IMG/VR virus record: IMGVR_UViG_3300032307_000117
Coordinates: 1-64,000 of that record
Length of the DNA stretch: 64,000 bases
DNA from: a virus
Direction: 5' to 3' (one strand)
This document shows, one piece after another, positions 42,968-63,123 of this stretch. Positions within the stretch are counted from its first letter, which is position 1; each line of letters starts with the position of its first letter. The notes below the pieces were generated by a model that saw nothing but the letters and a program-made list of their open reading frames with translations, searched no databases and was not told where the DNA came from. Made by a program: the position numbers and the translations under genes.

Positions 42968-44560
42968 CTACTCAGCTGCTCTACCCTCACCCTGTGGATT
43001 TCTACCACTTAGGGTTGTTGGGCTATCAGAAGCGTTGTTAGACCTTTCGGTGTCCCTTGCTCTATTTCCTGAGAGATCCGCCCTAGTATCCGCAGCCTGC
43101 CGTGGTGACATTACAAATGGCATGTCTCCGTCTGGCCTCTGTGGCAAACCAAGAACCTGTCTGGCTTCGTTAGGAACCATAACTTGGGTCTTTACGTATC
43201 TTTCAAGAATCTGGGACTGAGCAATTTCATCAGTCAGGGTTAGCTCGTTAAACTTAAGCTCTAGGATGTCAGTCTTTTCACGAATAATCTTATTAAGAAC
43301 CTTCTCTAGATTCCTCTGAGCTGGTCTTGCCACCTGCTCTTTAAATGTACGATCCTGGGCAAGGGCAGATGCGATGTTTGAAGAATCCCCTCCACCAATC
43401 TTAGATAGCGGAACCTGGTGTGCAATAAGAATGTCGTCTCTGTTTTGCTTGCGGTATTCCTTGAAGGAAGCTTCCTGAACACCGTTCTCAATTGGCTCCA
43501 TTTTAAACTCAACCTTATTAGTCTCTGTATCTCCTGGTAGCGGAACGTAGAGGGTTCTGTGGGACTGACCCTTTAGATTTGTCTGAAGGAATCTAAATAA
43601 CTTATCTTCTGCCTCGTCAGATAGTCTTGCACCCTTTAGGGTTACGACGTATCTAGGAACAGCCTTATTTCCAAAGTAATCAATGTTGTATTGTGATGCT
43701 AGCTGGTCTCCATGCAAAGATCCAATTGCAGCCATAATGTCTGGAATACCATAGAAAGTATTTAGTGGAGAATACTGCTTAAAGTGAATGATCTCGTTTG
43801 GTCTTGGATCATCAGTCATTGGGTTTACGTTAGTTGCCCCGAAATTTCTAAAGTAGACAACCCTGTGACCAATCATCTGGACATAGCCATCACGAAGTCT
43901 ACGGACTCTCATGGTTGTTGCTGGAATGTGCCCCAGGTATCCAATCTGGCCATTTACGGTTCTACCAATTTCTAGGTATCCATTTCCAGTTGCCTGAACA
44001 TCTGTGTAAACCTTTGTCATAACGTTTGTAAAGGACTCGTCATCATTAAGGGTTTCTATCCAGTCCCGCATCTCAATTTTTGCTCGTTCAATTCTGTTTC
44101 TTGCCCTAGCCCTCTGCTCTTCATTAGCAGACTCAAGCTTCATCATAGTCCTATCAGAAACGTGGAAGTCATAACCAAGTCCAACGATATTTTCCACCTT
44201 TGCATCAATGGCTGCGTGGTTGGCAAAAGATGTGTCATAGTAGTTTGCAAGCTCATAAAGATTCCATGGCGGGGTAATGACATCAAACAAGCCATATCCG
44301 TTGTGGTAAACAACTCCAGGGTTAATCTCCTTAGATCTTGCACCGTCTCTACCAGCATTTACAGCAAGGGCATTCCCAAGGTATTGGTCGGTTGCATCAA
44401 CCTTTGCAATCCTGTTGGTTTTTCTTTTAAAGTTATTGCTAATTCCAGAGAACTTCTTTAGCTCTTCCCAAGGCTTGTTAAAGGGGTCTTGCCTTTTAAA
44501 GGTGTCATCTTCTGGTAATAGGTCATCTGTTTTTAGCAGAATTCTCTGGATTTCATCCAT
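42968..44560 (-). CDS. portal protein
   Basis: GNGYLEI, EIIHFK, YGIP, AHQVP, PNEAR..LGL. Confidence 0.92.
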   Translation of the reverse strand: MDEIQRILLKTDDLLPEDDTFKRQDPFNKPWEELKKFSGISNNFKRKTNRIAKVDATDQYLGNALAVNAGRDGARSKEINPGVVYHNGYGLFDVITPPWNLYELANYYDTSFANHAAIDAKVENIVGLGYDFHVSDRTMMKLESANEEQRARARNRIERAKIEMRDWIETLNDDESFTNVMTKVYTDVQATGNGYLEIGRTVNGQIGYLGHIPATTMRVRRLRDGYVQMIGHRVVYFRNFGATNVNPMTDDPRPNEIIHFKQYSPLNTFYGIPDIMAAIGSLHGDQLASQYNIDYFGNKAVPRYVVTLKGARLSDEAEDKLFRFLQTNLKGQSHRTLYVPLPGDTETNKVEFKMEPIENGVQEASFKEYRKQNRDDILIAHQVPLSKIGGGDSSNIASALAQDRTFKEQVARPAQRNLEKVLNKIIREKTDILELKFNELTLTDEIAQSQILERYVKTQVMVPNEARQVLGLPQRPDGDMPFVMSPRQAADTRADLSGNRARDTERSNNASDSPTTLSGRNPQGEGRAAE

Positions 44561-48586: not shown

Positions 48587-49927
48587 TTACACTTTTACGA
48601 TTGTATCCGATAAAACAACATCGCTTGTTGGTCTTCCGCCTGGGTCTCCGCCAAACAGGGACGGAGGGCTACCTTCCAAAAAAGTGGCATCTGATATTGT
48701 AAGCGATCCATTAGATTCTGAAAATGATCCAGCAACAACAGTAAAAGTCTGCCCCTCCATCTTATAAGATCCTAAAACTGAACCGTCTGTTGGCAATGAC
48801 AAAAGCATGTGTCTTTTGTTTCCAAGATAAGGAAAGGCAGTTGATTGAAGAAGAATTAGGCTGTCTTTTGGAAGCCTTGAGTCTACAGTTTGCAAGTTAC
48901 TAGAAGTAATAGATGCAAGTCTTTGCAATTGCAATGCCCCAGAACTGTTGTACTTTACAAAAAACATAGCGCTTCCAGATGCTCCAGTTACATAGCAGTT
49001 AGACGATGAGTCTACGTGAATTTTATCAAAGCCATATATGTTGGGTCCAAAAAGATTTTTTTGCCAAAGGATGTCCCCCGCTGGACTTAATTTTACTACA
49101 ATTGCTTTGGATGGGCTTCCATTTATTCCAGGGTCTGAAATTAGAAGATAAATATTATTCGAGGGGTCTGTAGCAGTACTAACTGGCATAATTCTAGAGC
49201 CTGCAGGAGAAACTATTAGCTTTTGCCATTGTAGCGTTCCAGAAGAGTTATACTTTGCAATAAGACCTCCCTCTGCCCAACCACTGCCCAAAAAATTTCT
49301 TTGCCTAGCTGCTGGAATAATAATGTTTCCAGAGCTATCTATCGTAGGTGGAACTCCAGCAAAAATACCATCCGCAGATTCGGTACCATTTCCATCTATT
49401 ACAGAGTTGTTTCTCAGCATTCTTTGAAACAAAACGCTTCCAGAATTATTTAATTTAGAAAGAACCATGGCGTTTGGAGACTGAAAACCGCTAAAAATCA
49501 TGTATCTATTTTCTGAAGAATCTAGGCAGTGACCACCCCAAAATCCAGATCCATAAATTATCCTCCACTGCTCTACCCCAGAAGAGTCTCTCCTAGAAAT
49601 ATATGGGCTACTAGAGTTTCTAATGTTTGCTGTGTATATGTTTCCAGAACTAGAAACATTAAATGCGTTTTGATAGAACCACTCTTCTTCAAGAGCTACT
49701 CTGTCAAAAACCTTTGAGAACAAGATTGTTCCACCACTATTATATTTTCTTAAAGATGTTTTAGAGGTATTTCTGTACCATCCACCAACATAAATATTTC
49801 CAGAGGAATCGGCATCAAAGGATTTAATTATAGATTCTTCGACTGGGGAGCCTGGTGATCCTATCAATAGAAACCAGTGCTCTGGATTCCTTTCTCCTTC
49901 TTTAACTACTCCGATTGGGATTCTCAA
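48587..49927 (-). CDS. beta-propeller (SBBP-like repeat) protein
   Basis: Repeated DSSGNIY..G...KYNSSG.L.WQ units. Confidence 0.75.
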   Translation of the reverse strand: MRIPIGVVKEGERNPEHWFLLIGSPGSPVEESIIKSFDADSSGNIYVGGWYRNTSKTSLRKYNSGGTILFSKVFDRVALEEEWFYQNAFNVSSSGNIYTANIRNSSSPYISRRDSSGVEQWRIIYGSGFWGGHCLDSSENRYMIFSGFQSPNAMVLSKLNNSGSVLFQRMLRNNSVIDGNGTESADGIFAGVPPTIDSSGNIIIPAARQRNFLGSGWAEGGLIAKYNSSGTLQWQKLIVSPAGSRIMPVSTATDPSNNIYLLISDPGINGSPSKAIVVKLSPAGDILWQKNLFGPNIYGFDKIHVDSSSNCYVTGASGSAMFFVKYNSSGALQLQRLASITSSNLQTVDSRLPKDSLILLQSTAFPYLGNKRHMLLSLPTDGSVLGSYKMEGQTFTVVAGSFSESNGSLTISDATFLEGSPPSLFGGDPGGRPTSDVVLSDTIVKV

Positions 49928-49929
49928 GA

Positions 49930-50592
49930 CTAGCCTCCGATATCCCCAACAAAATAGTAAACGCCATCTAGCTTAACCAGAGTTGCAGCGGCATATTGAG
50001 AAAAAGTAGCAAGCTTTCCATCCCTAGAATTAATCGTAAGTCCACTGCCAGCAACGGTAATTTTGCCATCTCCAGACTGAATGAAGGTCACAGATTGTCC
50101 ATTTTGCAAAACATCTGGAACTGTTATTGTGATATCAAAAGCTCCAGATCCAATTATAGTGTTTGCATCTGTTGCCTGTAGAGTATACGAGGTAGTCTTG
50201 CTTGTTGTAGTTGTTTCTAGCTGAGTGCTGCTTATGGATATGGAAGACTGATTTATAGATACCGTTTCGCTTTGGGCATCATAAGCTAGTGGGCTTGTTG
50301 CATTAGTTACCCCAGAGGGTCCGTCATCACCTTTTATACCAGTGTCACCTTTTGGTCCTGCTGGACCTGCTGGCCCCAGTGGTCCAACTGGGCCCTGTGG
50401 TCCAACTGGGCCCTGTGGTCCTGGAACACCTTCGGCTACATAGGGAAGGTCTACCCACTCGGTTGCTCCATCTCCAACTTTTAGATTGGTAGTGTCTGAC
50501 TCAAATCCAATTTCACCATCTTCCAGTATTGGATTTGCGGTTTCCCACTGAGCCGCCGTACCACGCCTCTGTCTAGTTCTAACGAAAGTCAT
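49930..50592 (-). CDS. fibre protein: Mtd-N-like domain + collagen + C-terminal beta domain
   Basis: QRRGTAAQW...[15 protein letters not shown]...W..LPY; GXY repeats; ends YFVGDIGG. Confidence 0.8.
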
Positions 50593-50604
50593 ATATTTCT
50601 CCTA

Positions 50605-51264
50605 TTAATCCAGATCGCCAAATAAAAAGTAGCTGCCATTTGCTTTTGCTACAGATGCTCCAGCATATTGCATTTTTGTTTTTGGTGAAGTAGCCTTTGT
50701 ATTCAGGGTGATGCCTTGTCCTGTAAACGTTATCTTTTCCGTGCCAGTTTGAATAAAAGTAACCATGTCACCGTCCTGCAGAACATCTGGAACTGTCACA
50801 GTCAATGCTAGTGTCGATGATCCTATAAAAGAGTTGGCATCAGATGCCTGCAGTGTATATGTTGACTGCTTTGTGCTCGTCAAAGACGATACCCGTGATT
50901 CGTTTACTGTGATTGCAGATTGATTAAGGGATAACGCTTTTGTTGTTGAATTGTAAAGAATTGGTGGTTCTACATTTACCGAGCCTGAGTCTCCGATAGG
51001 CCCCTCGTCTCCAATTGGACCTTTTATGCCAACAGGTCCTAGTGGTCCACTTGGTCCCGCTGGACCCTCTGGTCCTAACGAACCAGTTTCTCCTGGCACT
51101 GCGCCACCAACATATGTAAGATTATTCCAGGCTGTTCTGCCATCTCCAAGCTTTAATTTTTTGGTGTCTGTTTCTATGCCTAGCTCACCAGACTCTAAAA
51201 CTGGATTAGTAACGGCCCATTGGGGTGCTGTTCCCCTTCTTTGCAGTAGTCTGCTAAGTGCCAT
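50605..51264 (-). CDS. fibre protein, full-length paralog of 49930..50592
   Basis: QRRGTAPQW...GELGIETDT..LKLGDG; GXY repeats; ends YFLFGDLD. Confidence 0.8.
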   Translation of the reverse strand: MALSRLLQRRGTAPQWAVTNPVLESGELGIETDTKKLKLGDGRTAWNNLTYVGGAVPGETGSLGPEGPAGPSGPLGPVGIKGPIGDEGPIGDSGSVNVEPPILYNSTTKALSLNQSAITVNESRVSSLTSTKQSTYTLQASDANSFIGSSTLALTVTVPDVLQDGDMVTFIQTGTEKITFTGQGITLNTKATSPKTKMQYAGASVAKANGSYFLFGDLD

Positions 51265-51281
51265 GAAAAATCCTAATCAGT

Positions 51282-51611
51282 TTAAAATAGTCTATTTTGA
51301 ACTATAGCCTGTATCTCAGCTTCTGAAAATCCGAGCGTAGCTAATTTCTCTCTTGCAGTTCTAGGAGCATTCATAATTTCTAGCTCTGCCTCAGTTAAAT
51401 CTCTTACAATCCAAGTGTGGAACCATTCCCCATTAATCTCTTCTGGCTCCCCAGCTTCAAAGGTCTGTCCAGGCTCTAGTTCTGGAGGATTAGTTTCATT
51501 TACGAATATCCATCCAGCTGGTAGCGGATCTCCGACATTCCATTCTGGATTAAGGATCTGGATATCTCCAGGGTATCTAGGGTATTCATTGTTTGGTGAT
51601 ATGTATGGCAT
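51282..51611 (-). CDS. small fibre-associated/chaperone-like protein
   Basis: SD and promoter TGATAAAAT at 51633-51641; ends AREKLATLGFSEAEIQAIV. Confidence 0.55.
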   Translation of the reverse strand: MPYISPNNEYPRYPGDIQILNPEWNVGDPLPAGWIFVNETNPPELEPGQTFEAGEPEEINGEWFHTWIVRDLTEAELEIMNAPRTAREKLATLGFSEAEIQAIVQNRLF

Positions 51612-51664
51612 ATAACTCTCCTTGTTAAGACTATTTTATCATACTATAAGTTGTATTATTCAAG

Positions 51665-51702
51665 TAAAATAGCGGAGCAGATTTTAGGTCTGCCCCGCTA
51701 TT
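51665..51702 (-). terminator. intrinsic terminator
   Basis: AATAGCGGGGCAGA-CCTAAAA-TCTGCTCCGCTATT followed by TT. Confidence 0.75.
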
Positions 51703-51715
51703 ATCGCAATATTGA

Positions 51716-53317
51716 TTATACTAGTAGCGTTCCTACAGTTGTAATCGTGGCTGCTCCTGTCACGGTAACCCAGACATAAACGTCTGTTCCAGAAACAATA
51801 GCTGAAACTTCTGACAAAGAACCGTTAGTTCCCACAACTCCGTACTCGGTAACTGCAACGTTGTCTGAAGAGTCCAGAGTAAGTAATAGCTTTGAAATTT
51901 CTGTGTGAGATCCAGACTGAACCTTTACCAAGAATTCTGCAGATCGGTATTCTGACTTTAGGAATGTTGCAGCTGCAAGAGATCCAGCCTCAACTGCTTG
52001 GGTTGTAAATGCTACCTGCTTAGCAATCGAATTAATATCTACGGCTAGGTAGGTTGGGGTAGCTGTAGCATCACCAGCAGCAACCAAAGCATCTGAATAT
52101 CCATTGGCAGCAAGCAGTGTAGCTGCATCCTGCTGATCAATGTATTCAACTGTTGTACCAGTACTTGGATCTAGGAACCCATCGATGTAGTTCGTAAGAT
52201 CGCTTACGGCTGTGTCTGTGTATTCCTTAGTTACAGCGTGGTCATTAGCTGTTGGTGTTGCAAGACCAGTAATATTGTTGCTACCCATGGCTAGGTTTCC
52301 AGTCATGGAGTCTCCAGCCTTGCTAACCTTAGTTCCGATGTCAGTTGCTATTGTGGCTGCAAAGTTTTCGTCATCGTTAATAGCTGCGGCTAGCTCATTA
52401 AGGGTATCCAACAAAGCTGGGGCACCGTCAACAAGATTTGCAACTGCAGAATCTACATAAACTTTTGTAGCAGCATCGTTGTCACTGTTTGGAGCACCTA
52501 GATTATTGATGTTCTTAAAGTTAGCATCTAGAGCACTGTCAAGTAAGGTTCCAGACCCAAGAGTCTTGTTTGTAAGAGTCTGGCTGTCTGAGTCACCTAC
52601 AATGTTTCCATTTACTCCGTGGGCAGATGTTGCCTCAGTGTGATTAAGAAGAGAGCCTCCAATTGCACCAGTTGCAAAATCTACATAAGGCTTTGTTGCA
52701 GCAATTTCATAACCTATTCTAACTTCGTAGCCAGCTGCTGGGAAAAGGCTAATGTCGTTAGATGTTGAGCTAATTGCAACCCCATTAACATCGTTAGAAA
52801 ATGCAATGCTAAGGTTAGTTCCAGCATCATCAACAGTCAGCCCAGTTGCTGAAATATCTCCAGCTGCAAAGTCTCCATTTGCATCACGCTGTACAATCTT
52901 GTTTGCAGTGTTAGTTGAGGTGGCAGCTGTCTCTACTGCGTCTACTGCTCTCTGGTCTGTAAAGTACTTGTTAGTTGTGCCTTCATCTAGATCGTCTGTA
53001 GTTGAATCTTCTACACCGTTTTCAGCGGTAATGACTAGACCTTCTTCAGTTCCAGTAATTGATATATTTGTCTGTGTAGACTGTACCAAAAGCTGTGTAG
53101 CTGCTGCTTTAGCTTCTTCGTCTGTATAACCTGGAGCTGCCTCAAAGGTTACTTTTTTCTCTACTGCATCGTATCCTACAGTAATGTTTAAGTTACCGTC
53201 GCCATTTCCAGCGAGAAGGGCATCCTCTGTAATAATGTCTGATCCGTTGATGGTACCATTCTGTCCCTCAACGACTAAACCATGTTTGACCTTAAAGTCT
53301 TTGGTTACTGTTGCCAT
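51716..53317 (-). CDS. long fibre protein
   Basis: TTDDLDEGTTNKYFT, QTLTNKTL, DAATKVYVD, APALLDTLNELAAAI, KVSKAGDSMTG: trimeric fibre motifs. Confidence 0.8.
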   Translation of the reverse strand: MATVTKDFKVKHGLVVEGQNGTINGSDIITEDALLAGNGDGNLNITVGYDAVEKKVTFEAAPGYTDEEAKAAATQLLVQSTQTNISITGTEEGLVITAENGVEDSTTDDLDEGTTNKYFTDQRAVDAVETAATSTNTANKIVQRDANGDFAAGDISATGLTVDDAGTNLSIAFSNDVNGVAISSTSNDISLFPAAGYEVRIGYEIAATKPYVDFATGAIGGSLLNHTEATSAHGVNGNIVGDSDSQTLTNKTLGSGTLLDSALDANFKNINNLGAPNSDNDAATKVYVDSAVANLVDGAPALLDTLNELAAAINDDENFAATIATDIGTKVSKAGDSMTGNLAMGSNNITGLATPTANDHAVTKEYTDTAVSDLTNYIDGFLDPSTGTTVEYIDQQDAATLLAANGYSDALVAAGDATATPTYLAVDINSIAKQVAFTTQAVEAGSLAAATFLKSEYRSAEFLVKVQSGSHTEISKLLLTLDSSDNVAVTEYGVVGTNGSLSEVSAIVSGTDVYVWVTVTGAATITTVGTLLV

Positions 53318-53333
53318 TTCTTATCTCCTTATT

Positions 53334-53783
53334 TTATGCCTTTAATCCTATGCGAGCAAAACGCACAGTGATTGGCCTAACTGCAGGATTGGGGGTAACG
53401 ACAAGATTAATATCGCCAGCCTCAGTCCTTGAGACGCTAATGGTTCCAACATCCCCATCATTGTCTAAAACTCCATATTCTGAGACGTTAACATTTGTAC
53501 CGTCGCTTAGTATGGATAATTCTGTAGCAAAAAATTTGTTATCATCATTTGAGGTTTTTGATATAGAAACTAGATACTTAACCATTCTCCAGTCAGATGC
53601 CCTGAATGAATCAACTACCGTTTCGTTTTCTATGCCAAAAATCTCATTTTCGTTATTACCATTAGTGCCTAGATCAGTTGCCTGAGCTGCAAGGGTATCA
53701 ATTAGATTCTTGTAATCATCAGACGTCGGCCTATCGCCTCTCTCAAAACGTGTTTTGAGCGTGGTAATATCAATTTTAGCCAT
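53334..53783 (-). CDS. fibre-associated protein sharing a C-terminal domain with 51716..53317
   Basis: SDWRMVKYLV...VSEYGVL vs SEYRSAEFLV...VTEYGVV; leaderless promoter at 53790-53798. Confidence 0.65.
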   Translation of the reverse strand: MAKIDITTLKTRFERGDRPTSDDYKNLIDTLAAQATDLGTNGNNENEIFGIENETVVDSFRASDWRMVKYLVSISKTSNDDNKFFATELSILSDGTNVNVSEYGVLDNDGDVGTISVSRTEAGDINLVVTPNPAVRPITVRFARIGLKA

Positions 53784-53808
53784 AACGATATTATATCATT
53801 ATTTTATT

Positions 53809-54156
53809 TTATATAGACTGCTGATCCCAAGATATGGTTTCTTCGTTCCATAAATACATACCGCCGTCATTTGGATACGGTGTTGGGGATTCCCACAAAG
53901 CGGTTTCTTCATTTAGTGTCCACGACTCAAAAGGTTTTGGCGATATAAAAGCATCTAAAGCTTCATCATAGGTGTAGCCAACCCCAGCATAGTTTTTACG
54001 ATAGTTACCGTTGTACGAAGTTCTTTTACAGGTCTGCCCCCGAAATTCTCCATACCATACTTCAGGGTGCTTACCCTCAATTAGCTCTGTTTCATCAATT
54101 CCGACGATAACCTCTGTTACGATATTGTCGTTGTCTAGAAATGCATAGTGTGCCAT
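53809..54156 (-). CDS. small partner protein of Gly-rich adhesin (copy 1)
   Basis: MAHYAFLD...RTSYNGNYRKNYAG.GY.YDE.LDAFI.PKPFESW. Confidence 0.7.
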   Translation of the reverse strand: MAHYAFLDNDNIVTEVIVGIDETELIEGKHPEVWYGEFRGQTCKRTSYNGNYRKNYAGVGYTYDEALDAFISPKPFESWTLNEETALWESPTPYPNDGGMYLWNEETISWDQQSI

Positions 54157-54166
54157 TTTTATCTCC

Positions 54167-55129
54167 TTATGTCCAACTAATATTTCCAGCTCCTGCTGTT
54201 ATTATTGTAGTTACAAGCCCTCCACTTGCCGCAGATGATGATCCAGTTAGTCCTGCCCCAATGGTCAGAGAATATGATTCTGGATATCGTAAAACAACAA
54301 CTCCTGAACCACCGTTTCCACCACCCTGTTCATATAGATATCCAGCCCCACCTCCACCAGTATTGGCTACTCCATTTGCATTTCCTAGTCCACGCCTTGC
54401 TGTTTGGTTAGGAACCTTTAGTCCAGAAGTTCCTCCACCACCAATACCACCAACTCCAGTAGTAAGTGGAGAAGTTGCAGATAGGTTTCCTCCACCGCCA
54501 CCTCCAGCATAATAACTGTTAGTAAACCCCAAAAGTCCTGCACCACCAACACCAGAAGTATTTATAATGTTTGGTTGTGTTCCAGCAGACCCAGCTCCTC
54601 CACCACCACCGTTTGCATAGTCATAAACGTAAAAATTACCGCTTCCACTAGAGTGCCCTCCTACAAACCCCTGATTAGCAGTTCCAGTACCAGCCCTGTT
54701 TGCACTATCTGAAGCTCCACCACCAGATCCACCATCATTTACTGAGCCTGCTGTTTGTCCTTGTGCTACACCTCTTCCACCACCTAAAGAAGTAATAGAG
54801 CCAAAAACTGAATCTATACCTTTAGTGCCTTGATCAGCTCCAGACTGATTTCCAATAGCTCCACCAGCACCAATTGTTACTGAATAATTTACATTAGTTT
54901 GAGCAATTAGAGCACCTTCTGGATTAGATCCACCACCTGAGGTAAAACCAATGGCATTTGTCCTGTAGCCACCGCCACCACCACCGCCTGAGTGATATCC
55001 ACCACCGCCACCACCACCCGCAACAACAATATATTCAACTGTTAGTAATGGTGGTGGTAACTGAGCTTTTGCATTACGAAAAACATAAAAATTATTTATT
55101 CCAGAATATCTTAGGCTTCTTGCTGACAT
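54167..55129 (-). CDS. glycine-rich (polyproline II bundle-like) putative adhesin (copy 1)
   Basis: VEYIVVAGGGGGG...YYAGGGGG...GGSGVVVLRY. Confidence 0.75.
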   Translation of the reverse strand: MSARSLRYSGINNFYVFRNAKAQLPPPLLTVEYIVVAGGGGGGGYHSGGGGGGGYRTNAIGFTSGGGSNPEGALIAQTNVNYSVTIGAGGAIGNQSGADQGTKGIDSVFGSITSLGGGRGVAQGQTAGSVNDGGSGGGASDSANRAGTGTANQGFVGGHSSGSGNFYVYDYANGGGGGAGSAGTQPNIINTSGVGGAGLLGFTNSYYAGGGGGGNLSATSPLTTGVGGIGGGGTSGLKVPNQTARRGLGNANGVANTGGGGAGYLYEQGGGNGGSGVVVLRYPESYSLTIGAGLTGSSSAASGGLVTTIITAGAGNISWT

Positions 55130-55137
55130 ATATTGTC

Positions 55138-55470
55138 CTAAGCTGTTATCTCGGAGCCAAACACACTAAATGTTAAAAGATCACTTGATGCTCTAACAGT
55201 AATGACATCTGCTGCATCAAGGGTAATTCCAAGAGTAAGGGTTGTTGAGTCAGACGCTGATACTGGGACATCGTAGGCAATGTAATGCTGATTTGCTAAA
55301 GTAGCCCCATTTGGTCTAATTGCAATTCTATATGTTGCGTCCTGAGTATGTCTGTTTGCAATTATAATTGAAGAAATAATTGCTTGAGTGTTTGCTGGTA
55401 CAGTGTATAAATTTACGTCTACTTCAGCATCTTGGGCAGACTGCCCTAAAACTTTATAAGTTGTCGCCAT
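55138..55470 (-). CDS. ~110-aa beta-sandwich adaptor-like protein
   Basis: MATTYKVLGQ...LYTVP...SSIIIAN...FGSEITA. Confidence 0.7.
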   Translation of the reverse strand: MATTYKVLGQSAQDAEVDVNLYTVPANTQAIISSIIIANRHTQDATYRIAIRPNGATLANQHYIAYDVPVSASDSTTLTLGITLDAADVITVRASSDLLTFSVFGSEITA

Positions 55471-55471
55471 T

Positions 55472-55642
55472 TTAGGCTCCCATCAATAAAAATATGTTTG
55501 GATCTACGCCACTTTGTGCAGATGACTGACCTACAGATACCGCCTTCCAAACGCCAACGGTATCGTTCCAAACCCAAGTTTTACCAGATGCAGAGAACTC
55601 TTGTCCATCTGTAGGAGTGTCTGGAAAGTCAATAGCGGGCAT
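55472..55642 (-). CDS. 56-aa DFP-domain mini-protein (not in ORF track)
   Basis: Hand-translated MPAIDFPDTPTDGQEFSASGKTWVWNDTVGVWKAVSVGQSSAQSGVDPNIFLLMGA; leaderless promoter TGGTATAAT at 55649-55657. Confidence 0.8.
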   Translation of the reverse strand: MPAIDFPDTPTDGQEFSASGKTWVWNDTVGVWKAVSVGQSSAQSGVDPNIFLLMGA

Positions 55643-55665
55643 ACGCTAATTATACCATAATAGTT

Positions 55666-56019
55666 TTAAGACTCTGACGACACTTCTACAGGAATCCAAG
55701 AAAGTTCGTCTTCGTTCCATAGATACATACCGTCATCATTTGGATAAGGTGTTGGTGGCTCCCACAATGCACTACTTTCATCAAGTATCCATGACTCGAA
55801 TGGTTTTGGAGGTATAAAAGCATCCAATTCTTCGTTATACGAATATCCAATTGCTGCGAAGTTTTTTCTAATATTGCCATTGTAGCTGGTTTTTATCCAG
55901 GTTCCCCCAAGATTATCGATTAGCCATTGATACCCTTCGTCACCGTTAGGATCTTCATTATCTCCAACAAGCACACGAAGAACAATGTTGTCTTTATCTA
56001 GTTCTGCCCAGTGTGACAT
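55666..56019 (-). CDS. small partner protein of Gly-rich adhesin (copy 2)
   Basis: Paralog of 53809..54156; SD and promoter TGCTATAAT at 56046-56054. Confidence 0.7.
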   Translation of the reverse strand: MSHWAELDKDNIVLRVLVGDNEDPNGDEGYQWLIDNLGGTWIKTSYNGNIRKNFAAIGYSYNEELDAFIPPKPFESWILDESSALWEPPTPYPNDDGMYLWNEDELSWIPVEVSSES

Positions 56020-56083
56020 AATTTCTCCTTATAAAATTTATTTATATTATAGCATTGGGTGATGTAAAAGAATTCTGTAACTT

Positions 56084-57097
56084 TTAGTTAGATGCTGCTG
56101 TTCTAAGGTATCTAATAATTACAATTCCAGCCCCTCCAGCACCCGAAACTCCACGATAACTAGCATAGCCAGACTGTTCCGCACTTCCACCACCAGAGCC
56201 CGTGTTAATTCCACCATCTCCAGCTCTTGTGATAGCACCATTATTAAATACAATGCTACCATTTCCACCAGAATTCCTAGCAGATCCACCGCCGACTCCA
56301 GCCTGGGTGCCACCATTGTAATCTGCCCTGCTGCCGCCTCCACCGCCACCTATTCCACCATTTCCACCTCTTCCAGAGTTCCAGGAAGATCCGCCACCGC
56401 CAGCTGCATAAAAAAGTCCATCAACCCATTGTTTTCCAGGTCCACCGTCTCCACCATTTGTTGATCCTGTTTGACCAGCACCACCTGCACCTCCACCGCC
56501 ACCAGAAACAACGTTTGTATTCCAGCCACCGCCAGAAAAACCAAAAGCAGTTCCTTGTACTCCTGCTACCTGATTACTTGCTCCTGGAGATCCTCCATAT
56601 GGAGCTCCACCACCCGAACCACCAGCAAGTCCATTTTGAATAACTGGTCCACCATCGCCATAAACTCCACCGCCACCGCCACCGACGGCCACTTCTTGCA
56701 AAAATGAAGAATTTGTTCCATTATTTCCAAGAACTCCATTGCCCTCTACCGAGGCTCCTCCTGCACCGATAAGGACTGGATAAGATCCAGGTGTGATTGA
56801 TAGGCTTCCAGAAATAAATCCGCCAGCCCCGCCGCCTCCACCGTGACGTCCGCCTCCAGATCCGCCACCAGCAACTACTAAGAAATCAGCCTGAACGGGG
56901 CCATTAAATACTTCCAGGGTTCCATTACCTGTAAAGGTGCGATAGTGATAAACGGAATCAGAAGTTAAAATGCCACCAGTAACAGTAGGCAGTAGCCAAG
57001 CATTATCCCTTACTAATTGATAATGCTCAGGAAGTCCGAAAAATCCTTTGATGCTGCCATTAGCCGTAGGCCCTAGCCTGCCACCATTCTTTGGCAT
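56084..57097 (-). CDS. glycine-rich putative adhesin (copy 2)
   Basis: YHYRTFTGNGT, DFLVVAGGGSGG, FYAAGGGG, GGAGIVIIRY. Confidence 0.75.
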   Translation of the reverse strand: MPKNGGRLGPTANGSIKGFFGLPEHYQLVRDNAWLLPTVTGGILTSDSVYHYRTFTGNGTLEVFNGPVQADFLVVAGGGSGGGRHGGGGGAGGFISGSLSITPGSYPVLIGAGGASVEGNGVLGNNGTNSSFLQEVAVGGGGGGVYGDGGPVIQNGLAGGSGGGAPYGGSPGASNQVAGVQGTAFGFSGGGWNTNVVSGGGGGAGGAGQTGSTNGGDGGPGKQWVDGLFYAAGGGGSSWNSGRGGNGGIGGGGGGSRADYNGGTQAGVGGGSARNSGGNGSIVFNNGAITRAGDGGINTGSGGGSAEQSGYASYRGVSGAGGAGIVIIRYLRTAASN

Positions 57098-57459
57098 TAC
57101 GCAATTTCCTCATAAGAACAGATCGCTGTTAGGTCTCCTGCAGCACTGGCCTGTAGCCAAATACTGTCATTTTCTTCTAGGTAAATCGAAGTAGCTTTGT
57201 CAATAAGTGTTAGAGTCGAATCAGCTGGTACAGAGATAGTTGAAGCTATAAAAAAGTTTGCGCTGTTATTCTTTCTAACATATGCGGTAACGTCTGCAGC
57301 TGCTGAACCATCAACATTTGCAATTATTAATGAGTTAATCTTAAAAATCTTGTTGCTGTTTGAAGAGTTGGTTACAATTGCTGCAGCGGATGTACCTATA
57401 GCCTGTCCAGCAATTTTTCCTAGAATGCTTGTTACACTTACAATGTTTGGGTTTGCCAT
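57097..57459 (-). CDS. ~120-aa beta-sandwich adaptor-like protein
   Basis: MANPNIV...KINSLIIAN...VPADSTL...SYEEIA; distant paralog of 55138..55470. Confidence 0.7.
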   Translation of the reverse strand: MANPNIVSVTSILGKIAGQAIGTSAAAIVTNSSNSNKIFKINSLIIANVDGSAAADVTAYVRKNNSANFFIASTISVPADSTLTLIDKATSIYLEENDSIWLQASAAGDLTAICSYEEIA

Positions 57460-57462
57460 TTG

Positions 57463-57804
57463 TTATCCTCCAAAAACTATTGACATTGCAATAGCCTTTC
57501 CTGTTGATGCCTTTGTTTCTAGCTGAGACTCTAGCTCTGAAATACCGTCGCTTATGCTATTAGTTACTAGCTCAACCCAAAAACTATCGTAATAAATATA
57601 TGTCGATCCGTCTACGGAGTTAAACCAAAGATCTCCCTCTTCGGCGTCTTCTGGCGCTGTTTCAGAAACAGTGATGCTACCAGATCCTCCACCAGAGGTT
57701 ACCCCCATTGACTCCCATCGAGATCCATCCCAAATCCACACCCTACCATTTTCAGTAGTAAAGGTGTCATTCAGGCTTGGCGAATTGGGAAAGTCTAAAG
57801 GCAT
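57463..57804 (-). CDS. DFP-domain protein with one GDxW module, ending KAIAMSIVFGG
   Basis: MPLDFPNSP...WIWDGSRW; VSETAP..AEEGDLWFNS..G..YIYYDSFWVE; leaderless promoter at 57811-57819. Confidence 0.75.
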   Translation of the reverse strand: MPLDFPNSPSLNDTFTTENGRVWIWDGSRWESMGVTSGGGSGSITVSETAPEDAEEGDLWFNSVDGSTYIYYDSFWVELVTNSISDGISELESQLETKASTGKAIAMSIVFGG

Positions 57805-57843
57805 AAGGCTATTTTATCACACTATTAAGCTAGTTTTAATAAG

Positions 57844-58695
57844 CTATGATACTTTTAAGATAGTAGAAACTATGGCTCTTCCAGCCTCTGTATCTGGAGT
57901 AATAATTGCCATGCTACTTCCAGCTCTATAGACCCTTAAGTAATAGCCAGTCGATATATCTGTAACGTTAGCCATAAAAGAAAACATTGCTGGCCCTGGA
58001 TCATTTACAACGTTTCCAGTTCCAAAGCTTCTAGCAATTATCGTTCCTGCTGCCGTTGCAAGATTTACACCAGTCCAAACATCTCCACCAGATCCAAATC
58101 TCCATCCAACATTTATTAGATATACTCCAGGCTGAGAGAATGTTATTAGGCCGTTAGACGTATTCAGGGTTATATTGCTAGCTATAACTGATTCATTTAA
58201 AACAATATTTTGATGACCAGATCCGTAAGTTACTTCTTGAATTCTATTAAACTGGGCATAAGCTTTAGATAAATCAATTGTTGACCACTGGGTATCATAA
58301 TCATTAGTTGATGCCTTGGTTAAAATTTGACCAGTGGTTCCGCCAACTGCTATTCCTGGGCCTGCTGGACCAGTTTCTCCTGCGACACCATTTGCCCCAT
58401 TTTGTCCGTTTGCTCCTGTAGGTCCTGCTGGACCTCTTGCACCAGCAGGGCCAACTCTGACCTCTCCAACCTCAACCCAGGAATTGTCGTAATAAATAAA
58501 AAATTGGCCAGTATTTGAGTCAAACCAGCCCTGCCCCTCTTGGATATTTTCTGGTGGGGTAGTGGAAGCGATAAATTTTCCAGGGAATATGGTAGTTACT
58601 GCTGCATCCCAAGAGGTGCCATTCCAAGTCCAAGCATTTCCATTTACGGAAAACTGCTGCCCTACTGATGGCGTGTTTGGAAAATCAATAGGCAT
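57844..58695 (-). CDS. DFP-domain + GxW module + collagen + C1q/BclA-like head fibre protein
   Basis: MPIDFPNTP; EGQGWFDS; GXY repeats; GGTTGQILTKAS..DYDTQW; ITFSQPGVYLI. Confidence 0.75.
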   Translation of the reverse strand: MPIDFPNTPSVGQQFSVNGNAWTWNGTSWDAAVTTIFPGKFIASTTPPENIQEGQGWFDSNTGQFFIYYDNSWVEVGEVRVGPAGARGPAGPTGANGQNGANGVAGETGPAGPGIAVGGTTGQILTKASTNDYDTQWSTIDLSKAYAQFNRIQEVTYGSGHQNIVLNESVIASNITLNTSNGLITFSQPGVYLINVGWRFGSGGDVWTGVNLATAAGTIIARSFGTGNVVNDPGPAMFSFMANVTDISTGYYLRVYRAGSSMAIITPDTEAGRAIVSTILKVS

Positions 58696-58742
58696 AATCT
58701 ATATTATATCTTATATTATTGAGATTAGGCTGAGTTTAACTA

Positions 58743-59048
58743 TTAAGCTATTTCAACGCCACTGATGTGGAATGTTAGGCCTGTTCCAGATGCCCCGCCA
58801 GTCACTGCGTCTCCAGCATCCAAGACCTGCTTAAGATCAATGTACGCTGTTGAATTTCCAGCCAAAGGTGCTGCGGTGTTAATGGCTATACCATCTAGCG
58901 AAAGAGTAAAGGTTCTTTCTGAAGATGTTGCATTTGATACAACAATGTTTGTTACGATAGCCTGTTTACCTGTAGGCACGGTATACAAAGCGGTGGTAGT
59001 TGTAGTAGTAGCGGCACCTCTAAATAGCACCTTGCTTGTTACTGGCAT
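58743..59048 (-). CDS. ~100-aa beta-sandwich adaptor-like protein
   Basis: MPVTSKVLFRGAA...LYTVP...TNIVVSN...FHISGVEIA; SD and TGATAAACT promoter. Confidence 0.7.
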   Translation of the reverse strand: MPVTSKVLFRGAATTTTTTALYTVPTGKQAIVTNIVVSNATSSERTFTLSLDGIAINTAAPLAGNSTAYIDLKQVLDAGDAVTGGASGTGLTFHISGVEIA

Positions 59049-59075
59049 AATTCCTCCATAAATAAGTTTATCATA

Positions 59076-59336
59076 TTAAATTGCGCCCATGATGGATAAA
59101 AGCTCTGAATCTTCTAGCCCAGCAACCTGGGACTTTTCGATTTCTATAAGGCTTTCGTTTATACCAATTATTGGACTATACTGAGTTCCAGTATTTGTAA
59201 TTGGTGAAGTTGTCTGTGTCCCATTTATTGCAAATGAAACAGTATTCCAAACAGAACCATCCCAGCTCCAACTGCGACCATCGGTTGCAACAAAGACCTG
59301 ATTTAATGTGGGGGAATTTGGAAAGTTAATGCGCAT
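59076..59336 (-). CDS. DFP-type mini-protein ending LLSIMGAI
   Basis: MRINFPNSP...WSWDGSVW; leaderless promoter TGATATAAT at 59343-59351. Confidence 0.75.
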   Translation of the reverse strand: MRINFPNSPTLNQVFVATDGRSWSWDGSVWNTVSFAINGTQTTSPITNTGTQYSPIIGINESLIEIEKSQVAGLEDSELLSIMGAI

Positions 59337-59373
59337 AGCTTAATTATATCACTAATTAAAATAATCACTGTAG

Positions 59374-59422: not shown

Positions 59423-59764
59423 TTAGGATTCGTCTAGCAGAGTGTATGTTCCATCTGGTGCTGGCTCGTGGGGAACTGGCTCATCTGATGGTGGGACTAC
59501 AATAGACGGATCATAGTCAAATGGCTCTGGTCTAGGAATTACTGGCTCATCTGGGTTGTTGCCCTGAATAAATTCAGATGTTGAATCTAGCAATGCCGTA
59601 ATGTAGGCATCTGCCCAATTCTGAACTTCCTGTCTATTAGCCCAAGGCGTACCATCTGGCCAGTCTGGCTGGAATAGGAATGGGGCATTGCCTGGTAGCT
59701 CCAAGTCATTATCCCAAACCCTAAGGTGATTGTTTGCATCTATTTCATAGTAGTACTTGCTCAT
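59423..59764 (-). CDS. small fibre-associated protein (start MSKYY, ATGA overlap)
   Basis: FQPDWPDGTPW...WA motif; translationally coupled to the glycosyltransferase. Confidence 0.6.
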   Translation of the reverse strand: MSKYYYEIDANNHLRVWDNDLELPGNAPFLFQPDWPDGTPWANRQEVQNWADAYITALLDSTSEFIQGNNPDEPVIPRPEPFDYDPSIVVPPSDEPVPHEPAPDGTYTLLDES

Positions 59765-60429
59765 GATCTTGGTCCTTCCCATGTTAGTTTCATGACTTTG
59801 TTGTGTTCTAGTTTGATACTTGGGTCGAACCAGATTTCAAATCCAGCTTCCCCCGCTCTGTGGCAGAATGATAGGTCTTCTCCAGTGATAGAAAAGTCAA
59901 GTTTTCCACCATCCCAGTCTACCTCAACTTTTGGAGACTGGAACCATGGCCTGCTAAGTGATTCGAATACTCCAGACTTTACTGCCATAAAACCCATTCC
60001 TGCACCCCAAACCTGTACTGGCTCTTTCATTTGTAGAACCTGATCGTAGGTGTATGGCTGCCCCATCTTTTCTTTGTGGGCAACAACTGTTCCATTTCCA
60101 AGAAGGTACGCTCCAGCAACAACGTCATACTCAGACTCATAGGCTTTGATAACGTCTTCTGGGGTAAACCTGATATCAGAATCTATCCATAAAATTTTGT
60201 CGTATGTAATTTGACCACTAAATGGTCTGCTGTCTTTTGGATTTGGAGTATTGCTACCATTTAAAGTTATTTCTCTGGCGTCAGCCACATGGCTAGAATA
60301 TTCTGAGGTATATAGCCAAGAAATCTGCCTTCTGTTTAGCTCATCAATTGTCAACAATAGGCTTTTTAGATATGGTGCCATAACTGAATGACCAGGGGTA
60401 GCTATAACTAAATTTACGTGATTTTCCAT
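59761..60429 (-). CDS. GT-A fold glycosyltransferase
   Basis: LVIATP, ILWIDSDI (DxD), GMGFMAVK..VFE, PWF, GEDLSFC. Confidence 0.8.
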   Translation of the reverse strand: MENHVNLVIATPGHSVMAPYLKSLLLTIDELNRRQISWLYTSEYSSHVADAREITLNGSNTPNPKDSRPFSGQITYDKILWIDSDIRFTPEDVIKAYESEYDVVAGAYLLGNGTVVAHKEKMGQPYTYDQVLQMKEPVQVWGAGMGFMAVKSGVFESLSRPWFQSPKVEVDWDGGKLDFSITGEDLSFCHRAGEAGFEIWFDPSIKLEHNKVMKLTWEGPRS

Positions 60430-60457: not shown

Positions 60458-61696
60458 TTATACTATAGCAGAAATTTCAGCTTTTTTCTCAAACAGGACT
60501 CTGGTCTCTGCAGTTGCTGCTCCACCAAAGGTGGTTGTATTCCACAAAACTGCCTGATGTACACCAGTGTTTGGCTGGAATCCCATACCGCCCATGAGAT
60601 AACGGTTGTTTCCAAAAATAATTCCATAGGCGTGATAGTCTGCACCACTAAATGTTGACGGATTTGTTCTAAGGGTCCATGTAAGTCCATCTACCGATGT
60701 TTGTACAGAATATCTTGCAGCAGCAATAAATATTCCACCCTGGAAAATTATTTCAAATATTGGCTGTTGGTTGCCAAATGGCGTAACTGCCCAAACCACA
60801 CCATCTGTAGAAGTTCTAAGCTGTCCATTTCCAGCAACCACAAATCTGCCATTACCAAATGCTGCAGCCTCTAGCCAGTTACCAACAGCATTAGCATTCC
60901 TTGTTGTCCAGGTAACGGTATCTGTAGAAGTTATAAGCTGGCCTTCTGCACCGCAGATAACATAAACGCCATTTCCGAACGCTGCGGATCTCATGCTTCT
61001 GCTTTGAAACGCTGATTGTGCAGAAGAGTTTACTTCGGACCAATTTACTCCATTTGTAGAAGTTCTTAGTGTCCCGCTGTCTCCACCTGCCAAGAAAATG
61101 TTATTTAAAAATCTTGCAAAGAAATAAGATGTTCCAGAAAAGGGTCTATCCCAATGCCAGGCATTTGTAGATGTCCACAACTCTCCTCCAGCAGATCCAC
61201 CAGCAACTGGAATAACATATCTTCCAGCACCGTAGGCTCCTGGGAAAAATGTACTATTTATCGTAGCATTTAATGGGTGGCCCCAGTCACCAGTTCCAGT
61301 TGTTGAAACCCTTAGTTGTGGGGCAAAGTTGTTGCCATCATACCTATAAACCCCCAATAAAAATAGCTCATTTCCAAATACTAAAGGTTTTGCAACGAAA
61401 TAGTTGTTAGACTCATATCCATATCCGCCAGTTAGGCCAGACCACGGAACAGCTCCAGATGCGCCCAATGGAGCAATCGTCATAGATGTTTGTGGGGTAG
61501 TTATGAAGTATGTGCCAGTAGTATTATTAACAAGAGTGTTTGTTCCTAAAGCAATGTTTCCAGATGAAGCTACTGTGACATTGTATACCCCAGGCTTAAT
61601 GTCAACTGGAACAGATCCAGAACGCTCAGTTATATACGCTCTGCTATAGCTAGATGGATCTCCACCAGCTGATAGCGGGAATTGTGAAATTGCCAC
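60458..61696 (-). CDS. beta-propeller (BNR/YCF48-like repeats) receptor-binding-like protein; GTG start
   Basis: Repeated (F/Y)GNG..V..G...L.TSTDG..W units. Confidence 0.75.
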   Translation of the reverse strand: MAISQFPLSAGGDPSSYSRAYITERSGSVPVDIKPGVYNVTVASSGNIALGTNTLVNNTTGTYFITTPQTSMTIAPLGASGAVPWSGLTGGYGYESNNYFVAKPLVFGNELFLLGVYRYDGNNFAPQLRVSTTGTGDWGHPLNATINSTFFPGAYGAGRYVIPVAGGSAGGELWTSTNAWHWDRPFSGTSYFFARFLNNIFLAGGDSGTLRTSTNGVNWSEVNSSAQSAFQSRSMRSAAFGNGVYVICGAEGQLITSTDTVTWTTRNANAVGNWLEAAAFGNGRFVVAGNGQLRTSTDGVVWAVTPFGNQQPIFEIIFQGGIFIAAARYSVQTSVDGLTWTLRTNPSTFSGADYHAYGIIFGNNRYLMGGMGFQPNTGVHQAVLWNTTTFGGAATAETRVLFEKKAEISAIV

Positions 61697-61737
61697 TACC
61701 TGACCTCAATTCTTAGAATAATCATTTTTAAATATAA

Positions 61738-63123
61738 CTACTGAGTTAATGTAGTTATCTCACCCTTCTTTTCAAAGGAAACATACGTGCTACCGCCAGA
61801 GACTGCCTCACCCATGCTTGTTGTGGTTAGTCCAGTTGCGTATGACCAGTTATTTCCATCTCGTCTACCCTGGCCACTCATAATCCATCTTCCATTACCA
61901 AAGTCAATTTTGCTAACATATCCAGAAGGATAGGTTCCAGTCCACCAAGGTGGATTATTTCTTAATGTCCAAGTAATTCCACTTGGAGATGTTGCCACAA
62001 AGTAATCTCCAGCCATAACAAAAATACCATTAGCAAACTTAAGTGCGTAAATCGCATTTCCAGTTCCTGGATTTCTTAGTTCCCAGTTTACTCCGTCAGT
62101 AGACGACCTTAGTTGATTTCCTCCAGCAACCAAGAATAATCCATTGCCGTAGGTTGCAGCTGTTAGCCAGTTACCAACGGCATTAGAGTTTCTTGTGGTC
62201 CAAGTTGTTAAGTTAGTTGAAGTAACGAGCTGTCCTTCTTGGCCTGCAACAACATAAGTTCCATTTCCATAAGCCATGCTTCTGATTGATCTGCCAACAA
62301 ATCCAATATCAATTGGAGCTGTCCAGTTAGTTCCATTTGTTGCATACCTAAAGTGACCGCCATCACCACCAATAAAGTGATAGCCATTAAAAAATTCTGC
62401 CATGTATGGCTGACCAAGTCCACCAGAAGAGTTACTGTTAATTTGTTCGTCCCAGTGGAAAGCATTTGTTGAAGACCAGACCCTTGGAGTACCAACCTGA
62501 GTAACCACATATCTTCCATTGCCGTATCCGCCAACAAAGAATTCGTTATCTACGTTTCCAGTTAAAACCTGTGGCCAGCTAGAAACGTTTGTAGAGACAT
62601 AAAGTCTAGGAACTTCTCCAACACCAGACCTATGCCTGAAGGCCATTAGGTAAACATCGTTTCCATAGCCGCAGCTACTAAACCAGCCATTCCAGTTGTC
62701 ATTGATAAAAATAGCGCCCCAGTTTACGTTTCCAGTAGATCCAATAGGGAGAATGTTCATGCTTGTTTGTGGTGTGTCAAAGAAATACATTGTGTTAGCA
62801 TTTTGAGAGATCGTCTGTCCACCGACAATAAAATCTGCAGCTGCTTGAGCTCTTACGTGATATGCTCCAGCTGGCACGTTAATTGTGTAAGTTCCAAAAC
62901 CAGTAACCTTATATGTTGGGTTATACTCAGTCTGGTCTCCAATAATTCCCAGGGTATTTGGTTCAGCAACGGCATATTCCAAAGCATTCCAAGCGGTAAC
63001 ACCATCACCAATCTTAAACTGGTTAGTGTCATTCTCTATACCCACTTCGCCAATAGCTAAAGTTGGGTTTTCAGATGTCCAGTTTGCCGCTGTATCATTA
63101 CGAAGCTGGATTTGTACTGACAT
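61738..63123 (-). CDS. Mtd-N-like domain fused to a beta-propeller paralogous to 60458..61696
   Basis: IQLRNDTAANW...GEVGIENDT..FKIGDG; shares TWTTRN.NAVGNWL.AA and FEKK.EI with 60458..61696. Confidence 0.75.
   Translation of the reverse strand: MSVQIQLRNDTAANWTSENPTLAIGEVGIENDTNQFKIGDGVTAWNALEYAVAEPNTLGIIGDQTEYNPTYKVTGFGTYTINVPAGAYHVRAQAAADFIVGGQTISQNANTMYFFDTPQTSMNILPIGSTGNVNWGAIFINDNWNGWFSSCGYGNDVYLMAFRHRSGVGEVPRLYVSTNVSSWPQVLTGNVDNEFFVGGYGNGRYVVTQVGTPRVWSSTNAFHWDEQINSNSSGGLGQPYMAEFFNGYHFIGGDGGHFRYATNGTNWTAPIDIGFVGRSIRSMAYGNGTYVVAGQEGQLVTSTNLTTWTTRNSNAVGNWLTAATYGNGLFLVAGGNQLRSSTDGVNWELRNPGTGNAIYALKFANGIFVMAGDYFVATSPSGITWTLRNNPPWWTGTYPSGYVSKIDFGNGRWIMSGQGRRDGNNWSYATGLTTTSMGEAVSGGSTYVSFEKKGEITTLTQ

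Follow-up and report, generated by a model that had tools for sequence, protein, structure and literature searches.

By what means are receptor-binding proteins joined to the fibres of the phage represented by IMG/VR record IMGVR_UViG_3300032307_000117, in which one set of fibre genes recurs within a single cluster? Phage host range is set by such proteins, and their mounting decides the ease with which they are exchanged. The 64,000 nt analysed herein (positions 1 to 64,000 of the record; hereafter the window) are part of a 75.9-kb viral contig and encode a portal protein (42968-44560) as well as a tape measure protein of 2885 aa, which marks the phage as long-tailed. The fibre cluster of the window lies upstream of the portal gene. 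Within it, a sequence-only reading had described two full four-gene cassettes and part of a third, and had proposed that the C-terminal peptide of each anchor recruits a cognate adaptor (termed connector herein), which in turn loads one glycine-rich adhesin. The genes, strand and coordinates of these cassettes were borne out, and the paralogy between them is far beyond chance. Comparison with other viral loci argues for a broader arrangement, in which anchor tail, connector and binding-protein head are matched by class and probably form a modular fibre joint.

All eleven genes of the repeated region are carried by the minus strand, with a 5′ to 3′ order of anchor C, connector C, a stand-alone fibre, cassette A and cassette B. 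Both full cassettes possess, in turn, an anchor, a connector, a glycine-rich protein and a partner. In cassette A, the anchor (57463-57804, 113 aa) harbours a DFP head, a conserved N-terminal region, and a class A tail of ..GKAIAMSIVFGG (ending KAIAMSIVFGG). It is followed by connector A (57097-57459, 120 aa, ending EEIA), glycine-rich receptor-binding protein A (56084-57097, 337 aa, with a class A head of ..NGGRLG...GSIKGFFGL) and partner A (55666-56019, 117 aa), which is probably a fibre chaperone; the start of the glycine-rich gene overlaps the stop of connector A (TAATG). Cassette B comprises an anchor of only 56 aa (55472-55642), with a DFP head and a class B tail of ..IFLLMGA, then connector B (55138-55470, 110 aa, MATTYKVLGQ...FGSEITA), modelled as an eight-strand jelly roll, glycine-rich receptor-binding protein B (54167-55129, 320 aa, with a class B head of MSARSLRYSG..) and partner B (53809-54156, 115 aa), likewise a probable fibre chaperone. 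With regard to the partial third cassette, anchor C (59076-59336, 86 aa) displays a DFP-type head (MRINFPNSPT..W.W....W) and a class C tail of ..LLSIMGAI, and connector C (58743-59048, 101 aa, ending VEIA) belongs to the same jelly-roll family. These two genes stand as originally described; the next gene had been overlooked, and encodes a complete DFP-collagen fibre (57844-58695, 283 aa) consisting of a DFP head, a collagen-like repeat and a weak BclA_C/C1q-like C-terminal domain.

Class matching of tails, connectors and heads

The comparative set consisted of 223 IMG/VR loci, containing 203 distinct connector genes of three classes and 6106 distinct open reading frames (ORFs). Within this set, each connector class is preceded by a characteristic C-terminal tail, which follows the pattern A[ML]A[IM][VI]FG(G) for class A, [FL][LM]L[MI]G[AG] or ..LGGM for class B, and [LI][LIM]MGA[LYI] for class C. 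The strict tail motif occurs in 152 of the 6106 ORFs. With adjacency taken as a gap of no more than 60 nt between a tail-bearing ORF and a connector downstream of it, 130 of these proteins are adjacent, and each matches the class of its connector (72 B-B, 44 A-A and 14 C-C), without a single mismatch. Covariation of tail and connector across genomes, the absence of which would have spoken against the original proposal, is thus present throughout the adjacent pairs. For each of a further 22 tail-bearing proteins, which have no connector next to them, a connector of the cognate class is found in the same locus (22/22); some of these tails are located 1.5-5 kb from the connector or within nested gene orders (L025, L031 and L182). 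Counted by locus, class C connectors have an upstream tail of the form [LI]MGA[LYI] in 30/47; counted by protein, a KAIAMAIVFG-type tail is borne by 52 of the 64 encoded upstream of class A connectors. The tail-bearing proteins themselves range from 37 to 1213 aa, and display at least six unrelated heads.

A second match is apparent on the downstream side. Proteins encoded after the connector begin with a head of the form ..(Y/F)xxNGxxIG...SG(I/V)(W/F)xL in class A, MA(I/V)x(S/R/T)(L/F).. in class B and MG(I/L)S(V/T)FP.. in class C. This class-specific head is independent of the rest of the protein, which may be glycine-rich or, for example, a chain of 788 aa with 11% glycine. In total, 69 families are represented amongst the downstream proteins, and nine of these occur in more than one class. 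The proposed route from cognate tail peptide through connector to one receptor-binding protein therefore gains from the class covariation across loci, and from the natural fusions described below; its restriction to glycine-rich adhesins does not hold, as many proteins downstream of connectors are not glycine-rich.

Relatedness between loci was controlled by limiting nearest neighbours to proteins without BLAST similarity between their bodies. This nearest-neighbour test replaced single-linkage clustering of the upstream fibre bodies, which had merged into one large cluster due to shared fibre repeats. Amongst such body-unrelated neighbours, the connector class was correctly indicated 177 times out of 193 by the last 8 residues of the upstream protein (for shuffled labels, a mean of 68 and a maximum of 84), and 161 times out of 180 by the first 12 residues of the downstream protein (mean 63 and maximum 85 on shuffling).

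Seven loci with a single class B connector gene (L034, L036, L047, L050, L054, L073 and L076) harbour, at a distance of 3-5 kb downstream of that gene, extra proteins of 70-165 aa ending in ..FMLGGM, so that several tail-bearing proteins may be served by one connector.

The connector family, its fold and its fusions

The three connector classes are related to each other. Connectors B and C match with E values of 2e-11 by BLASTP and 5e-20 by profile comparison, and the A and B classes align by hhalign with a probability of 89% (E 2e-6). At a cut-off of E<=1e-3 the connector B family comprises 7991 or more protein clusters of 109-111 aa, and IMG/VR loci number at least 554 for class B, at least 515 for class A, and 63 for class C. 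Sequence conservation is high, with connector B sharing 67-90% identity with its best 120 relatives and 55-71% with 80 IMG/VR relatives. Connector A is 48-51% identical to gp65 of HTVC033P and to a 'putative lectin' of DSL-LC04.

The AlphaFold2 model of connector B (predicted local distance difference test score, pLDDT, 93.3; predicted template modelling score, pTM, 0.84) is an eight-strand jelly roll. Its fold matches within the PDB are led by nucleoplasmin-type cores (Z 10.4), with which the HFTV1 turret and the KHP40 trimeric cement protein (both Z 10.0, the latter over 103 residues) are tied, at 8-12% sequence identity. Phage baseplate and fibre domains follow at Z of approximately 7-8.6, and the tip of the Bdellovibrio fibre Bd2133, BclA and TNF-like proteins are among the weaker matches. 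No T4 gp10 chain appears among the fold matches listed, which does not exclude a gp10-like fold. Searches of PDB chain sequences with the connector, both as a single sequence and as a profile, returned nothing meaningful. Within BFVD, the size and fold of the connector recur in many stand-alone viral proteins (TM 0.8-0.94), and the fold is also part of some tail-fibre-like proteins. In S-SCSM1, S-TIM5 and MaMV-DC, proteins of the same fold carry the label 'virion (structural) protein'.

A search for longer relatives identified connector domains within larger chains. One lies at the C-terminus of a fibre (P0137), others are N-terminal on glycine-rich proteins (P0124 and P0161) or on another domain (P0175), and P0134 contains two tandem connector domains followed by a collagen fibre. 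From these fusions, it is apparent that the order fibre, connector, binding protein is sometimes realised in a single chain. P0123 and P0139 possess an insertion of 160-260 aa after connector strand 1. Insertion-bearing connectors as a whole (P0123, P0128, P0139, P0171 and P0198) measure approximately 267 and 365 aa, with one cluster of 48 members, and in each the large insert sits between strand 1 (MATTYKVLGQ) and strand 2. Two additional candidates, P0121 and P0122, were not counted as fusions; they resemble stop-codon read-through (..SEIA-Q-.. and ..MGA-QQ-M..), and may be recoded or miscalled.

The connector gene is always found among fibre genes and is not encoded with capsid genes, a setting that extends to cultured phages. 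In the Pelagibacter podophage HTVC033P, the tail fibre gp66 ends in ..KAIAMAIVFG and is followed by gp65, the glycine-rich gp64 and the partner-like gp63. Phage DSL-LC04 displays the same gene order. The Pontimonas siphophage phiPsal1 carries the arrangement 020-021-(glycine-rich)-024 directly after its tape measure and distal tail genes, and in the T4-like cyanophage P-SSM2 tail fibre 301 is followed by 302. In phiPsal1 (L227; MG835450.1, 8045-8740), the annotated phiPsal1_022 and phiPsal1_023 translate to Val/Leu-rich nonsense, and are probably a wrong-frame overlay of a glycine-rich gene that lies between connector 021 and partner 024. A scan of bacterial genomes gave only seven matches, all of them in metagenome bins, so that hosts could not be read from prophages. 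A megablast comparison of the region with cultured phages gave no match.

A proposed fibre joint and its alternatives

The reading that we favour, and consider probable, is that of modular fibre joining. The proximal anchor would provide a virion-attachment head, DFP in the present case, and a short hydrophobic tail of one of the three classes. This tail would be bound by the jelly-roll connector of the matching class, which would probably keep three tails together in trimeric form, and which would also bind the class-specific N-terminal head of the receptor-binding protein encoded next. From this we infer physical contacts within the virion that give a fibre of anchor, connector and binding protein, the latter being glycine-rich and of the PF21722 family in this phage. 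The small chaperone encoded right after the glycine-rich protein would probably aid folding and then leave. Prediction of a complex between three copies each of anchor B and connector B, supplied as alignments, scored 0.00, a value that speaks neither for nor against binding.

A more ambitious version, which we put forward tentatively, holds that the three classes may be a portable and mutually orthogonal docking standard, through which podo-, sipho- and myoviruses infecting numerous aquatic bacteria would exchange their receptor-binding proteins and arrange them in branches, with one connector able to serve several tails. The DFP head resembles the class C head (M-G-I-S-V-F-P), and might itself dock on a connector, creating a branched fibre tree. 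If real, a docking code of short peptides would account for the recombination of widely differing fibres and binding domains in aquatic phages, its three specificity classes being conserved in environmental phage genes by the tens of thousands and in all three tail types. A function would also follow for abundant 'hypothetical' families, namely the 110-aa connector, phrog_7759 (the partner) and the mini-anchors of 37-90 aa, and a compact natural toolkit would be at hand for mounting binding domains on phage particles in the laboratory.

A number of observations weigh against the fibre joint. Covariation alone is no proof of contact, because the three elements, tail, connector and head, are for the most part inherited together in one block. 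In the window, connector C is not followed by a protein with a class C head, the next gene instead being DFP-headed. The connector fold is, as modelled, generic, and would not in itself suggest a fibre joint. For the partner, the match to a known chaperone is weak (Z 4.4), and the helical trimerisation domain of that chaperone, Pam3 gp25, is missing. Lastly, part of the tail conservation acts at the RNA level, as tail glycine codons double as Shine-Dalgarno sequences. The penultimate tail glycine of class B is encoded by GGA in 67 of 75 loci, and forms GGAG with the following codon 1-4 nt before the connector start; tails A and B of the window likewise double as the Shine-Dalgarno sequence of their connector (GGA GCx / GGA GGx).

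These last points lead to an explanation without docking, in which tail, connector gene and head, which are usually contiguous, are simply one co-inherited recombination block, and the tail is retained by its overlap with the ribosome-binding site. The GGAG within class B tails at gaps of 1-4 nt, and within anchors A and B of the window, is as this would predict. Classes A and C, on the other hand, possess a separate Shine-Dalgarno sequence, and their glycine, leucine and phenylalanine codons vary synonymously; together with the conservation of non-adjacent tails, this indicates that constraint acts on the protein. As the 22 non-adjacent tails still match the connector class of their locus, even in nested orders, and as the covariation persists once all body-related neighbours are removed, we hold this explanation to be improbable. 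Somewhat more plausible, whilst still unlikely, is that the connector is a non-structural assembly chaperone, to which the upstream tail presents a folding or trimerisation tag before release, in the manner of T4 gp38/gp57A or Tfa. Its small size and its location directly after fibre genes are classic for a fibre chaperone, the specificity for tails is that expected of a recognition tag, and the fold resembles nucleoplasmin-type chaperone cores. Such a role leaves unexplained the equally class-specific downstream heads, the covalent fusions and the large surface insertion, and the cassette already contains a separate chaperone-like gene in the partner.

The connector could alternatively be the distal knob, or receptor-binding tip, of the upstream fibre, with the downstream proteins being independent fibres. 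Many trimeric fibres end in jelly-roll knobs, the weak fold matches include the Bd2133 tip, BclA and TNF-like proteins, and P0137 carries its connector domain at the fibre C-terminus. Variable receptor-binding tips would, however, not be expected to show the identity observed amongst connector B relatives, nor would downstream heads be expected to covary with connector class or the domain to occur at the N-terminus of glycine-rich and collagen fibres; there is accordingly little to recommend this view. Least likely of all is that the connector decorates the capsid as a cement or turret protein and that the DFP proteins are head fibres. The KHP40 and HFTV1 matches, and the location of the fibre cluster upstream of the portal gene, would agree with this, but the Z values are typical of generic jelly rolls, and the module follows tape measure and distal tail genes in phiPsal1 and annotated tail fibres in P-SSM2 and HTVC033P.

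If the connector is indeed a fibre joint, it departs from each of the known systems to which it may be likened. The T4 hinge protein gp35 differs from it in size. The closest published design is that of KP32, K11 and KP34, podophages of Klebsiella, with an anchor, a T4gp10-like branching domain and a docking peptide (PMC6872550; PMC13352976). Common to both would be the attachment of a receptor-binding protein via a short conserved N-terminal peptide to a beta-sandwich platform, and the exchange of parts between phages. In the Klebsiella systems this platform lies inside the first receptor-binding protein, whilst here it is a free-standing protein of 100-120 aa that is also matched to the C-terminal tail of the preceding protein, and three specificity classes are present in one genome. 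The likeness to the Klebsiella receptor-binding protein heads is an analogy of design and not homology, with no sequence relation found. In Pam3, a glycine-rich fibre (gp24) is likewise followed by a small chaperone gene (gp25), with the fibre docking directly on the baseplate via a helical domain and no connector (PMC9608196). Separately encoded segments and a distal glycine-rich adhesin are shared with T-even long tail fibres and S16 gp38; as summarised from Dunne et al. 2018 in later papers, S16 gp38 binds the gp37 tip directly, unlike the connector relay proposed here (Dunne et al. 2018, cited in PMC13243795; PMC12032242). Polyglycine-rich 'brush' domains of siphovirus hub and minor tail proteins are proposed anti-receptors in sipho- and actinophages, and form the C-terminal part of the hub protein, whereas the glycine-rich proteins of this phage are separate and would lie behind a connector relay (PMC13243795). 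Literature on PF21722, PSSM2_302, HTVC033P and phiPsal1 yielded no description of the module, which is apparently a widespread, undescribed variant of modular fibre attachment.

Anchors, glycine-rich proteins, partners and neighbouring genes

The four DFP proteins are alike only in their first ~30 residues, which make up the DFP head (E 1e-5 to 1e-10 between the anchors). Anchor A matches the tail fibre family phrog_9729 (E 5e-11). Anchor B had been proposed as a gene missed by the ORF track, and is a genuine gene, with conserved homologues of 48-55 aa in other phage contigs; mini-anchors of 37-90 aa that share the tail of anchor B are similarly conserved. The 283-aa DFP-collagen fibre separates cassette C from cassette A and is free of any tail motif. 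It shares 42% identity with anchor A over 79 aa (E 2e-16), matches several tail-fibre PHROGs, and reaches E values of 2e-4 for Pfam Collagen and 0.06 for BclA_C. In other genomes the DFP head is also borne directly by glycine-rich and long fibre proteins, which, alongside its presence on a collagen-like fibre here, fits a general attachment head.

Both glycine-rich proteins belong to PF21722 (Gly_rich_2), exceeding its curated gathering cut-off of 24.3 bits with scores of 54.1 (protein A, E 2.7e-14) and 58.3 bits (protein B, E 1.5e-15), and both match phrog_2295 (E 3e-37 and 6e-37, respectively). The Atlas model of protein B has a pTM of 0.84, and its Atlas neighbours are all viral PF21722 clusters. 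A link to T-even gp38 adhesins had been drawn by the sequence-only reading. Searches of all PDB chain sequences with a single glycine-rich sequence and a 38-sequence profile retrieved no phage adhesin, gp38 included, at E<=1, and the glycine-rich proteins of the window showed no sequence similarity to any solved chain, including Pam3 gp24. As no sequence relation is detectable, the likeness to gp38 is one of analogy only.

Partner A shares 59% identity with partner B (E 3e-44), and both match phrog_7759 (E 2e-39 and 7e-39, respectively). Across distinct cases a glycine-rich gene precedes the partner gene in 59 of 69, as it does in both cassettes of the window. The AlphaFold2 model of partner B (pLDDT 93.6) contains a single short helix (residues 31-39) and a C-terminal half that is rich in beta structure and tryptophan. 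Of 48,161 chains, 28 reach Z 2 against this model, and the sole match above Z 4 is Pam3 gp25 (7ypx_a, residues 3-56; Z 4.4, root-mean-square deviation 2.9 over 54 residues), with Mu Tfa (5yvq_B) in third place at Z 2.5. In Pam3, the N-terminal beta-sandwich of gp25 grips the glycine-rich domain of fibre gp24 (PMC9608196; PDB 7YPX). Foldseek with the partner model gave nothing significant, and PDB sequence searches with the partner, single and profile, nothing meaningful. Given its best structural match and its position after glycine-rich genes, the partner is best, though weakly, supported as a fibre chaperone of the Pam3 gp25 or Tfa kind rather than a displayed part.

Upstream of the cassettes, potential transcription signals were also identified. 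An extended -10-like box (TGnTATAAT or TGATAAAAT) lies 6-7 nt before the ATG of all four DFP genes and of gene 53334-53783, none of which has a Shine-Dalgarno sequence; the connector, glycine-rich and partner genes each have one. These boxes are on the minus strand at 53781-53795, 55640-55654, 58693-58708 and 59334-59348, and, with TAAAAT, at 57805-57825. That of anchor C is TGATATAAT and that of anchor B is TGGTATAAT, both 6 nt before the ATG. Within the window there are 7 instances of the arrangement TATAAT-N6-7-ATG, compared with an expectation of 2.0, and each instance is on the coding strand. A standard promoter and terminator scan of the region found sites no more numerous than in shuffled sequences. 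The closeness of the boxes to the ATG of genes without a Shine-Dalgarno sequence suggests that each cassette is transcribed as a separate unit, beginning with a leaderless mRNA at the anchor gene.

Beyond the cassettes, the cluster contains further fibre families (48587-53317 and 60458-63123), and the phage therefore has an unusually large fibre set. A different conserved N-terminal head is common to the proteins at 61738-63123, 50605-51264 and 49930-50592 (E about 1e-12). The first of these is a paralogue of the protein at 60458-61696, with 40% identity, the latter being without that head. Connector-like C-terminal domains were considered for the fibre proteins at 53334-53783 and 51716-53317 on the basis of a BLASTP hint (E 0.006), and were dropped when profile comparison proved unsupportive. 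Just upstream of the cassettes, a 222-aa protein (59761-60429) matches phrog_1574 (E 3.5e-55), and overlaps the start of a proline-rich protein of 119 aa (59423-59782). Both of these recur beside the connector genes of two other loci (L061 and L062).

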